Sequence record: PZ379075.1
From: a phage
DNA length: 64,000 nucleotides
Reading direction: 5' to 3' (one strand)
Shown here: one piece after another, positions 49,390 through 55,400 of the stretch
Layout: each line of letters opens with the position of its first letter
How positions within the stretch are numbered: position 1 is the first letter of the stretch
Translations under genes and position numbers: made by a program
Notes under the pieces: generated by a model
What the model was told of the DNA's origin: nothing
The model's input: the letters and a program-made list of their open reading frames with translations, nothing else
The model's database searches: none

Positions 49390-50409
49390 TTACTTAGCAG
49401 CCAGTTGAGCTTCTAACTCTTCTACACGCTTCAGCAAATTCTGAACAACCTGCATAGTGTCAAGTAGCATAGGAGTTGTGTCTAACTCTTTCTGCTCTTT
49501 CATAGAATCGCCGTTTCCAGTTCCGGGATACTTACGAGTCTTGACATACAGAGGTTCTACCGTCTCTGCCTGCTGTGCAATGATACCACGACGAGATCGA
49601 TTCTTCTCATCATCGTTGTAAACAAAGGATTTGAACTTCAGTCCTTTTATTACTTCAATAGCTCTTTCTGCATCAATATCAACAATGTTATGTTTCAGGT
49701 TTTCATCCGAGACGCCACTCTTTGTAGGACCACCAGAACCGCCACCACTGTTACGAAGCTGTCTCAAAGTAACTGCATCGTAATCTCCAACTGCATCAGG
49801 AACAGTTACAGGTTGAGAGAAAGTCACCTTCTGAGTAAGCTGTTTGATATCAGAGTTAATCCCTGTACGAGTAACCCCAACAGTACGTCCCTTAGAATCT
49901 TTGACATAAGAACCAATTGCAGCGAAAGGCAAATCCTCAATCTCTGGACGATACCGTTTAGAATAAACTGGATACTTAGTTTCTACTCCAGAGTCGTTCT
50001 GGTCTACTACTTGAAGACGACCAGCAGAGTGAATCTCTACCCCCTGAACGGAAGAAGCATAGCTACCAATCTTGATTGAGTTATCAGGAGTAACCTTCAT
50101 CATATCCACAGACTCTACACCATTAGCCCCAGCAGAACGGAAAGGGATGTTATTATCTACAAAAGGGTCTGCTTTGAATAAAGCACCCTCCATGATAGGC
50201 TGTATTGAATCTAAAACATAATCCTTAGATGCACCTTCTGTTTTAGTCTGATATGTAGCAGCCGCATCGGTTTTCTGTAAATACTTATCAGTCAGGTTCA
50301 CAGCTCCTGCCTGACCATCTACTGTAGAAACACCAACAACTGCCGCATCTCTAGTCACAACTACGTGAGGCATCATTATGCCAGATTTGGGCATTAATTC
50401 TCTAGACAT
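49390..50409 (-). CDS. tail fiber/spike protein with C-terminal intramolecular chaperone (peptidase S74-like) domain
   Basis: C-terminal SDENLKHNIVDIDAERAIEVIKGLKFKSFVYNDDEKNRSRRGIIAQQAETV matches the auto-cleaving chaperone domain of endosialidase/L-shaped tail fibers. Confidence 0.6.
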   Translation of the reverse strand: MSRELMPKSGIMMPHVVVTRDAAVVGVSTVDGQAGAVNLTDKYLQKTDAAATYQTKTEGASKDYVLDSIQPIMEGALFKADPFVDNNIPFRSAGANGVESVDMMKVTPDNSIKIGSYASSVQGVEIHSAGRLQVVDQNDSGVETKYPVYSKRYRPEIEDLPFAAIGSYVKDSKGRTVGVTRTGINSDIKQLTQKVTFSQPVTVPDAVGDYDAVTLRQLRNSGGGSGGPTKSGVSDENLKHNIVDIDAERAIEVIKGLKFKSFVYNDDEKNRSRRGIIAQQAETVEPLYVKTRKYPGTGNGDSMKEQKELDTTPMLLDTMQVVQNLLKRVEELEAQLAAK

Positions 50410-50449: not shown

Positions 50450-53011
50450 TTACTTAACTGGCATCTCTACACGAACTGAGATAAAAGCATCACTTGGAAT
50501 ATCAATAGGATCTCCATCAGAAAAACCTTCTATCTCATTTCTAGCAAAAACTGGAGAGGTCGGGTGAGTTCTGTGATAGGTTTTAACTAAAATAGAACCA
50601 TCCTCTTTAACCTTATAATCTAACCAAATTCTAGGCTGCTTGTTGCGGTCTACAGGGATTTCAAACCCACCATCCACCCCACCCCAACTAGCGTCTACGT
50701 TTAAACCAAGGCAACCAGTAATCAAATATTCACCAATACCTTGCCGAATGACACTAACCCCCTCAGACTCATCATTCGTTTCATATCGACCGTCAGAGTA
50801 AACTTTAACTATCGGAGATGCCGCTTTGATGAATCCATTTACATCAACAGTGGTATTTTTGTCTGTGAGACACTGAACATATTTTGTTGTCCCATCTGCA
50901 ACTTTTATCGCGTAAATTACACGACCATACCCTGAGGCCGCACCACCAACCCCTGCGTATGACACAGCGTGAGCAATCCAGAAGTTAGTATCCTCTGGCT
51001 GCATATACCAATAGCAGTTAAACATGTCTACAGTAAACATGCCATTCCCGGCGACGTGCTGGACTCGAGCACCAGTACCACCTGTACCTGTATTTGCTGG
51101 AGTGTTGCTCAATGCTCCAATATTTCTCAGAGCACCATCAGCATCTGTTGCCCCGGTTCCCCCTCTTCCAACTGACAAAGCTACATCACCAGCTAATCCA
51201 GATATGGTACGGTAACACCCCCATCCGTTATTATCGACAAACATGTAAGTTTCTTTATTCGGAGAAAAGATTTTAGTCTCCACAGAACTTTGTTCTACTC
51301 TGTCTACTCCTAAATTAGACTTAGCACCCGCAGCAGTGCTAGCACCTGTACCGCCATTTGCCACTGGAATATTATCTAGTGTAGAAACAGAACCAAGTCC
51401 TAAATTAGATCTGGCGTCACTGGCATTCTTCGCCCCTGTACCGCCATTTGCCACTGGAATATTATCTAGTGTAGAAACAGAACCAAGTCCTAAATTAGAT
51501 CTGGCGTCACTGGCATTCTTCGCCCCTGTTCCACCCTGAGTAACAGACAGTGCTGTCGTAAGTCCAGTCATAGATGTTATATCAGAGTTTGCACCAGCAG
51601 CAGCAGCACCTAATATAGACCTGGAGATATTGACGTTACCTGTAGTTTCATCAGGAGCTTGGTTGTTTACAGTGACTACATAAGGAACCTGAGACTGAAC
51701 CCCACCTTTGTAATTAGCATCTTTACTAGAATCAGGGGAGCGAATAGCCTCACCACCTGTCCAATCTGGAAGACGTATATTAATGAAGTTAGTGGCATCC
51801 GCATCAGTTACACCATCAGTGAGTTTACCCCAAGAGAAATACTGACGAGCACCAGCTTGCCACTCTGTTTCAGAGACCACAGGAAGCTGACCACTGACTA
51901 GAGATGGGCCTAAGTCTAGAGCAGACTCTTTTGACACCAAACGACCATCGGCAGGAAGAACCCCCGGATATGAGATATTCTTCGTTGGGTCGTAAGGAAA
52001 CATTACCATCTCGCCAAGATACAGAGATGGGTTTCCTGTTGGAATGGTAATGTCAATGTTACCACTAGAGTCTGGAGAACGGGAGTTAACGGTAAGGATT
52101 CTACCTTCAGTTTTAACAGGAGTTAGTGTTTTGTTAGCAGCAACCGTATAGAATTCATACTTAGTAGCTTCCCAAACTAAGACCTGCTCTCCAACTTGAC
52201 GGTACTGAGCATCAGCATCAGCTTCTGCTTTTGATTGGTATGTCTTGGTAGTTTTGTCAAACTTGTCATTAATCTCTTGACGGCTGTATTGAGCAACGTT
52301 CAGAACATTCCCTAAACCTACTGTCTCTTTGTTAAACGTTAGAGCAACCTCTCCATCAAGAGCTGGACCCCCATTAACAGAAACAGAACGAACAACAGAT
52401 GGGATTAAGTTAGCAATGTTCTCTAGAGTGGTTTTGTGGACAGTATTGTCATCTTTGTCAACATAGAAACCTAAGTCACCTAACTCTGGAACACCGGTAG
52501 GTGCTGTATCTAAATCCTTAACAGAACCATCCTTTCCGGGATCACCTTCTGGAATACCTAAAGAGATTACACCAGTGGTCGGATTAAAAGAACCAGTAGC
52601 CGGAGTTCCCGGAGGAAGTGTAGTTACGTCAACGGACATTCCTAACAGAATATCAAGCTGATTCTGAACTTCAATAAGTTTCTGATTAATGAGAGCAACA
52701 GCATTGTTAGCATCAGAGACTGCTGCGTTAGTTTGAGCAATCAAGCTCATCAGACGAGCATCTTGATCTATAAAATCCTGCTTAAGATCTTCGATATCCT
52801 GCTTCATCAGAATACCTTGTTGATACAGACGTTCTACTTCAGCAATCAAATCATCAATCGTACCAAACTTAGACTCCGCTAGCAGTGCCCAATATTTGGA
52901 GTCAGCTGCGTATTCTGCTGCTTGCTTATAAGCTCCGATAGAGCCTTCAGTAGCACCAAACTGCCCAACGTTATTCACTGCATCAGGTGCTTGGTTATTA
53001 TAAACGATCAT
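50450..53011 (-). CDS. tail fiber protein with phage-fiber repeats
   Basis: 853 aa; N-terminal coiled coil; repeated GGTGAKNASDARSNLGLGS units typical of phage tail fiber repeat motifs. Confidence 0.7.
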   Translation of the reverse strand: MIVYNNQAPDAVNNVGQFGATEGSIGAYKQAAEYAADSKYWALLAESKFGTIDDLIAEVERLYQQGILMKQDIEDLKQDFIDQDARLMSLIAQTNAAVSDANNAVALINQKLIEVQNQLDILLGMSVDVTTLPPGTPATGSFNPTTGVISLGIPEGDPGKDGSVKDLDTAPTGVPELGDLGFYVDKDDNTVHKTTLENIANLIPSVVRSVSVNGGPALDGEVALTFNKETVGLGNVLNVAQYSRQEINDKFDKTTKTYQSKAEADADAQYRQVGEQVLVWEATKYEFYTVAANKTLTPVKTEGRILTVNSRSPDSSGNIDITIPTGNPSLYLGEMVMFPYDPTKNISYPGVLPADGRLVSKESALDLGPSLVSGQLPVVSETEWQAGARQYFSWGKLTDGVTDADATNFINIRLPDWTGGEAIRSPDSSKDANYKGGVQSQVPYVVTVNNQAPDETTGNVNISRSILGAAAAGANSDITSMTGLTTALSVTQGGTGAKNASDARSNLGLGSVSTLDNIPVANGGTGAKNASDARSNLGLGSVSTLDNIPVANGGTGASTAAGAKSNLGVDRVEQSSVETKIFSPNKETYMFVDNNGWGCYRTISGLAGDVALSVGRGGTGATDADGALRNIGALSNTPANTGTGGTGARVQHVAGNGMFTVDMFNCYWYMQPEDTNFWIAHAVSYAGVGGAASGYGRVIYAIKVADGTTKYVQCLTDKNTTVDVNGFIKAASPIVKVYSDGRYETNDESEGVSVIRQGIGEYLITGCLGLNVDASWGGVDGGFEIPVDRNKQPRIWLDYKVKEDGSILVKTYHRTHPTSPVFARNEIEGFSDGDPIDIPSDAFISVRVEMPVK
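51345..51524 (-). repeat. perfect 90-bp tandem duplication (2 copies) inside the tail fiber gene
   Basis: Identical 90-nt unit at 51345-51434 and 51435-51524, encoding the 30-aa repeat GAKNASDARSNLGLGSVSTLDNIPVANGGT twice; a third, diverged copy follows. Confidence 0.85.
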
Positions 53012-53020
53012 ATTATCTCC

Positions 53021-53770
53021 TTATACACGAGAAGTACGAATACCATAAATATCAGGCAGGCTGCTCTGAAGTCGAGTCATGTTATTCGGAATTGCGATAG
53101 GTGAACCTGAGTACTCTTGTTTCTTATTCTGCTCTACCATTTCATCAAGGATAGCTTTTCCTAATGCTGACCATTTCTGAACACCATTATCATCTTGAAC
53201 AAACAAGCAAGCATGACGTAGTGTGAAGTACAGAAGAAGTTCTGGTGCGATAGTAAGAATAGCACTAGTGTCTGTATCTTCGTGGAATTCCGGTGGATCT
53301 GCATAATAACTGAGAATCACTGAGTTTTCTGCTGGAATCAAAGGGCTTCCATCATCAGGATAAACAGGAGTATCTGCTTCAATACTAGGGTAGAAAATGA
53401 AACGACTCCCGAAACGAGCAAAGTTAACAGGTTGGTTATTCCAGTGAGATGGATTAACTGTTCCATGCTGTCTACGATAGCTAATCTCTTCAGGAGATGT
53501 TACTTGGAAGATTGCACCATCTTTGGCTCTCATCATCCATTGAGCTTCTAAGTAATCAGGAGGAATATAAGCCACTCCATCTTTGATATCTAAATACACT
53601 TCTTTTTCCAGAGGAGGGATTCGTAAGTTACGATAAATCTCTTTCTCTGCAAAGTTAATAAAGTTTGGAATTTGATTAACAAATTCATCATCGTCCCTAT
53701 CTGCCCAGAGGGCCACGGCCTTCTTTAGCCACCCATAGGTATTGATGGGGTATTGAACTTCAGGCAACAT
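53021..53770 (-). CDS. hypothetical structural protein
   Basis: Start moved to the internal ATG at 53770, preceded by GGAGGT; the track start 53797 lacks an RBS. Confidence 0.5.
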   Translation of the reverse strand: MLPEVQYPINTYGWLKKAVALWADRDDDEFVNQIPNFINFAEKEIYRNLRIPPLEKEVYLDIKDGVAYIPPDYLEAQWMMRAKDGAIFQVTSPEEISYRRQHGTVNPSHWNNQPVNFARFGSRFIFYPSIEADTPVYPDDGSPLIPAENSVILSYYADPPEFHEDTDTSAILTIAPELLLYFTLRHACLFVQDDNGVQKWSALGKAILDEMVEQNKKQEYSGSPIAIPNNMTRLQSSLPDIYGIRTSRV

Positions 53771-54272
53771 AGGATACCTCCTTCCAGTTTGTGCCATTGA
53801 TTATTAGGCTTATTGTGCTTGAAGAGACTCCAAACTTCCTAGCTAAAGCTCTAGCTCCGAACTGTCTGTCCCTCGGTTTATAGTTCTCTAAACAGAAAAG
53901 AACTTGTTCTTTAGTAAGTTTGGAATTAGGATTATCCTCAAGATTTCTTGGTGTTGAGAGTTTTGTTTCATAAGCATGTACACAGTTTTCTTGTTGAGTA
54001 CACCACTCTAGATTCTCAATCCTGTTATCATCTTTTATTCCATTCTTATGGTTGACATAATCCTTCCCTTCTACCTTAGGAAGAAAAAGTTCAGCTATGA
54101 CCCTATGCTCTAAATATGATTTCTTTTTAAAAGTCACTTTACGATAACCTCTGTCGCCAATACACCCGGCACGTTGTCCTTTCTGCTTATTAAAGATGTT
54201 ACTCATAGACCAGAAAAGATGCCCTGTATTTGGATCATAGGTAAAAGCTTCTCTGAAATCAGGCATTGCCAT
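53760..54272 (-). CDS. HNH homing endonuclease
   Basis: YVNHKNGIKDDNRIENLEWCTQQENCVHA (HNH_3-type motif) plus C-terminal HTH-like region; AGGAGG RBS; free-standing between structural genes. Confidence 0.65.
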   Translation of the reverse strand: MAMPDFREAFTYDPNTGHLFWSMSNIFNKQKGQRAGCIGDRGYRKVTFKKKSYLEHRVIAELFLPKVEGKDYVNHKNGIKDDNRIENLEWCTQQENCVHAYETKLSTPRNLEDNPNSKLTKEQVLFCLENYKPRDRQFGARALARKFGVSSSTISLIINGTNWKEVSYVA

Positions 54273-54374: not shown

Positions 54375-55400
54375 TTACGGCTTAGGTGTTACATTGGTTA
54401 AATTGAAAGTAGAAGTAACAGAGGTTTTAATTTTGTGAGTAGCTTTAATAGTTACAGCACCACTGGCTGTGTCAGCCAAGGTCAGTAACCCAGAAGTATT
54501 CACTGTACCAGCTTCTGTCGGAGTGACTACAAAGTTGTAATCAGATGCCGCAGAGTTAGTTACTGTAAACATATCAGCAAACGCGAGTGTATCACCGCCC
54601 ACTTTGTCCGCAACGGTAGCTTTAGCCACGATGGTTGGAAGAGGGGTTACGCCATTAATATTAGCAGTTGCAGTAACAGAGGTTACCGTCTTGTGAGTAG
54701 CTTTAACAGTTACGTTACCGCTAGCCGTACCAGCTAAAGTGAGCTGACCAGCAGCATTCACTGTACCAGCAGCAGATGGAGTTACTACAAAATTATAGTC
54801 ACTAGCAGCTGAGCGTTGAACAGTAAACATATCTGTAAAAGCGACACTGTCTCCACCAGATTTTCCAGTAATAGCAGCTTTAGCTACAATAGTTGGAGGC
54901 TGAGGGTTGACAACAATATTAATCACTTTAGTGACAGAAGGTTTAGTAGAGGATTTAACTGTAAGAGTAGTGCTACCTGCTGCAACAGCAGTTACACGAC
55001 CAGCAGCTGTTACCGTAGCCTTAGTCTGATCTGCAATTTCCCAGGTAACACCTTGAGGTGCACCAGCAGGAGATACAGAAGCAGTCAGGTTGGTAGCATC
55101 TGGAACAGTTATGGTGAGAGTATCACCAGTTAGACCACCACCAGTTACAGCAATGGAAGCTGGGTCAGGGATTGGAGCTTTAATTTCCGAGATAACGGCA
55201 GTGCCTGATACACCTTTAAGAGTAGCAGTCACTGTAATATCAGCGGTTTGAGGCGAACCCGGAGCAGTGAACAGCCCAGAAACAGAAATAGCCCCACCAC
55301 CGGCTACTGACCAATCGAAGCCTGTAGTAGATGTGGAGCCATCGCTTAGTTCTGCTTCAGCTGTAAACTGTTGGGTAGCCCCGGTCAGCAGACTTGCCAC
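54375..55400 (-). CDS. Ig-like domain structural protein (putative capsid decoration or head fiber)
   Basis: 341 aa; two internal repeats of about 85 aa (PTIVAKA...DMFTV..SAASDYNFVVTP...VTVKATHK); directly downstream of the major capsid gene and followed by a terminator. Confidence 0.5.
   Translation of the reverse strand: MASLLTGATQQFTAEAELSDGSTSTTGFDWSVAGGGAISVSGLFTAPGSPQTADITVTATLKGVSGTAVISEIKAPIPDPASIAVTGGGLTGDTLTITVPDATNLTASVSPAGAPQGVTWEIADQTKATVTAAGRVTAVAAGSTTLTVKSSTKPSVTKVINIVVNPQPPTIVAKAAITGKSGGDSVAFTDMFTVQRSAASDYNFVVTPSAAGTVNAAGQLTLAGTASGNVTVKATHKTVTSVTATANINGVTPLPTIVAKATVADKVGGDTLAFADMFTVTNSAASDYNFVVTPTEAGTVNTSGLLTLADTASGAVTIKATHKIKTSVTSTFNLTNVTPKP

Follow-up and report, generated by a model that had tools for sequence, protein, structure and literature searches.

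Probable recent duplication, in tandem and in frame, of a 30-residue shaft unit in a coliphage proximal long tail fiber gene of Kuravirus-like type

The fiber locus

The 64,000-nucleotide stretch of phage DNA analyzed here as a whole (the window) belongs to a Kuravirus-like coliphage. TH38 and ShigP1, the nearest genomes in GenBank, are ~94% identical to it over 24 kb. The tail fiber region features three neighboring genes, all on the minus strand:

53021..53797, minus strand: SU10-type adaptor gene, the docking partner of the fiber, upstream (PF24175 SU10_adaptor, E = 4.5e-29)
50450..53011, minus strand: proximal long tail fiber gene, homolog of SU10 gp12, with an intact 853-aa open reading frame (phmmer, PHROG, and Pfam)
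50459..50857, minus strand: C-terminal domain PF25670 (Phage_tail_C_2) of the proximal fiber, aa 719–851 (Pfam E = 7.1e-60)
49390..50409, minus strand: distal long tail fiber gene in a short 339-aa form, downstream (Peptidase_S74 chaperone domain, PF13884)

The order of adaptor, proximal fiber, and distal fiber is the same in ten relatives, including SU10, SGF2, and Bas92. PHROG matches are in agreement with the assignments of the adaptor and the distal fiber. By phmmer, the 853-aa protein aligns with PDB chain 7z47_D—the "putative tail fiber" of SU10—over aa 1–546 and 717–853 (E = 0) and is near-identical to it over aa 1–546; it also matches the PHROG tail fiber family phrog_10305 (E = 0). 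An earlier note on this DNA had assigned the gene to a tail fiber. This assignment holds and is sharpened by the phmmer and PHROG matches to a proximal long tail fiber of the SU10 gp12 type as found in Gordonclarkvirinae, with the N-terminal homology in the adaptor-binding region and coiled coil, the gene position, and the C-terminal PF25670 domain all present. In SU10, gp12 is the proximal long tail fiber protein and docks as a trimer on the adaptor; the first 90 residues are all of gp12 that is resolved in the cryo-EM structure, and in micrographs the trimer makes up the proximal half of an elbowed fiber of ~700 Å (PMC9509320).

A perfect period-90 array

Within the fiber gene, Tandem Repeats Finder reports a period-90 array of 2.1 copies at 51345–51529, with 100% matches, 0 indels, and a score of 370. 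Direct comparison at an offset of 90 gives an exact match of 95 nt, with 51345–51439 identical to 51435–51529:

51345..51529, minus strand: perfect period-90 tandem array of 2.06 copies (51345–51434, 51435–51524, and 5 further nt)

The copies lie head-to-tail in the same orientation and without a spacer. The interval 51345–51524, for which the duplication had been described, is exactly two units, and the identity extends 5 nt beyond it. Other 90-mers of the same gene match the repeat unit at 23 ± 4.7 of 90 positions with a maximum of 45 (ungapped identity), so the 90/90 identity of the copies is far beyond chance. Among direct-repeat families of at least 40 nt, the array stands alone in the 64-kb window. 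Since 90 nt are 30 codons, gain or loss of a unit is always in frame; with a unit of 30 codons and only two copies, the array is not a phase-variable (contingency) locus. Two further candidates were rejected. A third copy on the plus-strand side, at 51525–51614, reaches 26/90 in-register matches, which is chance level, and a plus-strand role for the repeat comes down to a 67-aa open reading frame at 51336–51539, a mere antisense of the conserved coding region.

Unit architecture of the shaft

The pieces of the shaft were defined by cutting the protein at every GGTG. From ~aa 490 to the C-terminal domain, the shaft consists of units that each open with GGTGA:

51536..51619, minus strand: pre-unit, aa 465–492, SILGAAAAGANSDITSMTGLTTALSVTQ, ending in ALSVTQ; family-conserved and ahead of the first GGTGA
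51446..51535, minus strand: 30-aa unit 1, aa 493–522, GGTGAKNASDARSNLGLGSVSTLDNIPVAN (translation and GGTG-delimited parsing)
51356..51445, minus strand: 30-aa unit 2, aa 523–552, protein identical to unit 1 (adjacent-unit identity 1.0)
51164..51355, minus strand: 64-aa module, aa 553–616, with the unit-like start GGTGAstAAgAkSNLG (GGTGASTAAGAKSNLG) and then a beta-rich insert
51083..51163, minus strand: 27-aa terminal short unit, aa 617–643, whose GGTGA start coincides with a mosaic boundary

The C-terminal part comes after the 27-aa short unit. The two identical 30-aa repeats that had been proposed for the fiber are, hence, seen in translation as units 1 and 2, whose first two Gly codons read GGT GGA in unit 1 versus GGC GGT in unit 2. 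A diverged third copy had been proposed as well, and this stands for its beginning only: The first ~17 aa of the unit from aa 553 onward are alike, and ~37 nt at 51308–51344 show partial DNA similarity, whereas the rest is the different 64-aa module. This partial copy lies below 51356, i.e., after the units in the coding direction.

Pfam and NCBIfam scans of aa 465–650 returned no curated repeat model, just sub-threshold chance matches. The unit motif recurs in the PDB fiber 8vbx gp47 (E = 4e-6), to which the pre-unit motif aligns too, and in the T5-like L-shaped fiber 8hqz and several tail-fiber PHROGs; a match to 6cl5, another tail fiber protein, is below significance (E = 0.21).

The AF2 monomer model of the full protein is poor (mean pLDDT 56 and pTM 0.27 from a 47-sequence alignment), its best-modelled part being the C-terminal domain. 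Low-confidence monomer models of trimeric fibers yield meaningless fold-search matches, and the secondary-structure pattern is the sole thing taken from the model. The repeat region has a pLDDT of 54–73 and features a seven-residue helix on A-x-x-A-R-x-N in every unit, with coil after it. The 64-aa module features the same helix, at residues 560–566, and then five strands at 571–609, at moderate pLDDT. What we take from this predicted pattern is that each unit may be a small self-contained element.

Single-copy relatives and gene mosaicism

An identity profile resolves the gene into a three-part mosaic. From aa 1 to ~390, the closest relative is SGF2 (96% over gene nt 1–1379); for aa ~395–613, it is an allele from the Logan contig SRR32069470_636 (L012; protein P0016); and aa ~616–853 are just 80 to 90% identical to anything. 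The middle part, which carries the array, corresponds to one segment:

51167..51822, minus strand: L012-like segment, gene nt 1190–1845, 96.5% identical to Logan contig SRR32069470_636

In a sliding profile, the donor switches at aa ~613–625, and the right-hand boundary of the segment falls on the GGTGA motif at aa 617–624.

Both nearest relatives of this segment carry a single unit. Over 566 aligned nt, L012 shows 20 mismatches; a single 90-nt gap lies at gene nt 1483–1572, and the duplication is the sole length difference between L012 and the segment. Bas92 (Escherichia phage JacquesWildberger, PQ850610) is ~91.5% identical over gene nt 1567–1873 and fits the 401-nt query 51250–51650 into 311 nt at 90% identity. 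In a three-way alignment, the 90-nt gap lies exactly on the unit boundaries. L012 and Bas92 share the pre-unit with the window; in each, the unit occurs exactly once and the same 64-aa module comes next. They differ from the window in their N-terminal and C-terminal mosaic partners. As both nearest relatives have one copy and the same 64-aa module, a duplication on the window's own lineage is the simplest reading. A very recent duplication, as proposed at the outset from the identity of the copies, is supported by these single-copy alleles and their clean gap. The zero differences date it weakly, being counted over just 90 nt: Copies as old as the split between the window and L012 (~3.5% divergence) would be expected to show about 3.

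Duplication junction and mechanism

On the coding strand, copy 1 starts at ACTCAGGGTGGA / ACAGGGGCGAAG (the slash marks the boundary), the two copies meet at GCAAATGGCGGT / ACAGGGGCGAAG, and copy 2 ends at GCAAATGGCGGT / ACAGGTGCTAGC. The string spanning the junction is AATGGCGGTACAGGGGCGAAG. The boundaries bear a microhomology, ACAGG, common to GGTGGAACAGGGGCG and GGCGGTACAGGTGCT, two strings that code for GGTGA and are similar in their other letters as well.

51428..51448, minus strand: copy–copy junction, AATGGCGGT / ACAGGGGCGAAG, in the duplicated allele only

Head-to-tail copies, single-copy relatives with a clean indel, and short homology at the boundaries are all found here. Very probably, a 30-residue shaft unit in the proximal fiber of this Kuravirus-like coliphage was recently duplicated in tandem and in frame. 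In the single-copy ancestor, neighboring GGTGA-coding motifs would have stood 90 nt apart, as GGTGGA-ACAGGGGCG and GGCGGT-ACAGGTGCT. These motifs may have misaligned, either by replication slippage or by unequal recombination between sister or concatemeric genomes. This would have inserted exactly one extra unit while keeping the reading frame and the unit register. Each chain of the trimer would then gain one module, lengthening or loosening the proximal half-fiber, and the extra unit would probably be tolerated or mildly adaptive rather than harmful.

Because the right-hand mosaic boundary also falls on GGTGA, the DNA coding for this motif suggests itself as a preferred crossover point for the shuffling of modules—as judged by one mosaic boundary in one gene. 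A comparable role is known from other fiber systems: In the distal fiber and adhesin genes of T-even phages, with conserved motifs in gp37 and glycine-rich ones in gp38, short conserved coding motifs flanking variable segments serve as crossover points at which modules are swapped or resized. The likeness lies in GGTGA, which in the window is present at one mosaic boundary as well as where the duplicated copies begin and end. The differences are that gp37 and gp38 belong to other protein families, that the site in the window is in the proximal shaft and not in an adhesin tip, and that its role in recombination is read from the mosaic of a single gene. More broadly, and as a tentative proposal that we hold to be doubtful rather than likely, the GGTGA-coding motif could be a built-in recombination linker in Gordonclarkvirinae and other phages bearing the motif. 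Shaft modules would be added, deleted, and reordered through it at appreciable frequency, tuning the length or flexibility of the proximal fiber to the thickness of the O-antigen or capsule, and the window would be an event just caught.

Unit number across the family

The earlier note had called for a comparison of repeat number among isolates. Unit number was counted in 131 family proteins; the comparison drew on ten GenBank relatives and 120 proteins from a large protein collection. The number of 30-aa units ranges from zero to three: None is found in 85/131 proteins, one in 9/131, two in 32/131, and three in 5/131. Modules of 60 to 68 aa are present or absent in the relatives and stand before or after the units. 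The architecture varies as follows (aa per piece, in order along the shaft):

SU10: 30
KM01: 30, 27
Bas90: 30, 64, 30, 27
NJ01: 64, 30, 30, 27
Bas92: 30, 64, 30, 30
Window: 30, 30, 64, 27

The last of these is unique to the window among the 131 proteins. The feature is, hence, real but ordinary, since the relatives already differ in unit number: The allele of the window is new, and its kind of variation is already known and expected in a highly mosaic gene. Family proteins with shared termini span 730 to 956 aa, and changes in shaft content are, as this natural spread shows, tolerated.

A second 90-bp array occurs in the orthologous shaft region of Escherichia virus TH34 (MT446407), with 2.6 copies at 99% identity. 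Its unit, GGTGATNAAGARTNLGLGNISTLNNVPVAS, differs in sequence from that of the window, and it is therefore an independent event. The array is found in both copies of the 530-bp terminal redundancy of MT446407, which contains a 1-nt indel, and the record is flagged UNVERIFIED; for these reasons, TH34 lends weak support to recurrence. At the level of the family, the suggestion that such fibers change by gain and loss of units is borne out by the range of zero to three units and by the array of TH34.

A different origin of the two identical copies would be that two older, diverged neighbors were homogenized by gene conversion, i.e., by concerted evolution without the addition of a unit. Traces of partial homogenization do exist in TH42 and TH34, in which the last unit and the one before it agree over their first 19 aa. 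However, both nearest alleles (at 96.5% and ~92% identity) show a clean 90-nt gap and a single unit at this position; two units in front of the 64-aa module are found in no other member of the family; and units generally follow their orthologs in other phages, not their neighbors, which together make gene conversion very improbable. Adjacent 30-aa units in the relatives are 53 to 87% identical, and the nearest match of a family unit is, as a rule, its counterpart in another phage. A better match within the same protein was found for 2/79 units, both of them those of the window; the two identical units of TH34 tie with an identical unit of TH42, and one unit of TH42 ties too. Concerted evolution as a general process of the family was rejected on this account, and ongoing homogenization, which had been named as an alternative to recent duplication, is disfavored. 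With older neighbors diverged and units tracking their orthologs, the family appears to evolve by occasional gain, loss, and reshuffling, not by steady homogenization. Duplication of a single unit remains the preferred origin of the array.

Copy number in the assembly

Many de Bruijn k values and common assembler k-mer sizes are shorter than the 95 nt of the repeated stretch, and the copy number in a short-read graph, hence, rests on coverage or read pairs. The two copies could, in principle, be an artifact of assembly or consensus, with the phage stock having one copy, three or more, or a mixture. The way in which the TH34 record was handled near its own array—sloppily, as judged by the flag, the redundancy, and the indel described above—fits such a reading. 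Against it, no k-mer of at least 13 nt that crosses the junction is present in the single-copy alleles L012 and L001, and each is found a single time in the window. Some reads must, thus, contain two or more copies, which makes a minimum of two copies real and excludes that the array arose purely by expansion of a single-copy template. In addition, the whole array is 185 nt long and can be spanned by 250-nt reads or by read pairs, and the duplication lies exactly in the frame and register of the native 30-aa unit, as it would in a viable allele. An artifact is, on balance, improbable; within that reading, the stock may be mixed or may have more than two copies that collapsed into two. Searches for the exact 853-aa protein in a public gene-position index and for the junction string in IMG/VR and JGI metagenome contigs gave no match. 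The absence of the junction carries little weight since control strings from within the unit had no IMG/VR matches either. The perfect repeat of 185 nt is one that short-read pipelines may miscount.

Known parallels and functional implications

A close counterpart is gp12 of SU10 (PDB 7Z47/7Z4A/7Z4B/7Z4F; PMC9509320), which resembles the protein of the window in the homologous terminal parts, the gene position, and the GGTGA-initiated units. It differs in that it has a single 30-aa unit, lacks the 64-aa module, and carries another domain ahead of the C-terminal one (786 aa in total), whereas the protein of the window features two identical units, the 64-aa module, and the 27-aa unit. The SU10 structure leaves the repeat region unresolved.

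An evolutionary parallel is the tail fiber gene of EfV12-phi1, in which coevolution with a resistant host repeatedly gave rise to in-frame tandem duplications, which were selected under coevolution only (PMC6365445). Like the array of the window, these duplications run head-to-tail and in frame within a long tail fiber gene, ahead of its binding domain, and their copy number varies. Their unit, however, is 1.8 kb long and arose under observed selection (PMC6365445), whereas that of the window has 90 bp and corresponds to one native structural repeat.

As read from the sequence, with one more unit per chain, the trimeric proximal half-fiber should become longer or more flexible. Selection for the duplication is plausible by analogy. 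A stronger version of this is that the allele is a variant of laboratory passage or host adaptation in which selection favored a longer proximal fiber because it adsorbs better through a given layer of O-antigen or capsule, the allele being adaptive and not neutral. Consistent with it, isolates of Gordonclarkvirinae in the BASEL collection depend on O-antigen and make first contact through their long fibers (PMC11990801), as the long fibers of SU10 do with the cell (PMC9509320); the duplications of EfV12-phi1 were favored in coevolution; and the unit content of the shaft varies widely among natural isolates. On the other hand, the receptor-binding parts are thought to be in the distal protein, not in the proximal shaft, and a change of 30 aa in a chain of 853 aa may be neutral. 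This adaptive reading is considered unlikely. The two-unit allele of the window and the 96.5%-identical one-unit allele form a clean natural pair for relating the shaft length of a podovirus to adsorption and host range, and the question of shaft length bears on fiber engineering for phage therapy.

Proximal long tail fiber gene

The proximal long tail fiber gene (window 50450–53011, minus strand), a homolog of SU10 gp12, is a three-part mosaic. For its first part, aa 1 to ~390, the nearest relative is SGF2, with 96% identity over nt 1–1379 of the gene. The second part, aa ~395–613, matches the Logan contig L012 (SRR32069470) at 96.5% identity, and the third, aa ~616–853, reaches an identity of only 80–90% to any relative. 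The right-hand boundary of the second part coincides with the motif GGTGA, which opens each shaft unit of this fiber.

The perfect period-90 array of the gene is also covered by an open reading frame on the opposite strand:

51336–51539, plus strand: 67-aa ORF with an internal repeat

This ORF was rejected as a gene, being the antisense of conserved fiber coding sequence and bearing no gene-like signs.

The record of Escherichia virus TH34 (MT446407) features a terminal redundancy of ~530 bp—positions 1–530 of its stretch L011 and 1015–1545 of its stretch L013—with an identity of 99.8% and one 1-nt indel. TH34's own 90-bp fiber array of 2.6 copies lies inside this redundancy. The redundant copy with which the record opens carries the indel, which shortens the predicted TH34 fiber protein (P0079, 585 aa).

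Distal long tail fiber gene

49390–50409, minus strand: distal long tail fiber gene, short form, 339 aa, with a Peptidase_S74 chaperone domain

The short distal fiber shares 87% identity over aa 1–235 with the 708-aa distal fiber of L012. This part is followed directly by the chaperone domain, and the receptor-binding middle part is absent. Short distal forms also occur in LAMP, EK010, E20-1, PAS59, and IMEP8. In those checked—LAMP, PAS59, and IMEP8—the short form accompanies a proximal fiber of 900–1100 aa bearing its own S74 domain, whereas in the window it is coupled with a PF25670-type proximal fiber.

Region upstream of the adaptor gene

53760–54272, minus strand: HNH_3 endonuclease ORF, 170 aa (HNH_3 match, E = 4.5e-13)
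54375–55400: Ig-like gene

Flanked by the Ig-like gene on one side and the adaptor gene on the other, the HNH_3 ORF overlaps with the beginning of the adaptor ORF. Since SU10 and SGF2 carry no gene at this site, it is probably a homing-endonuclease insertion.
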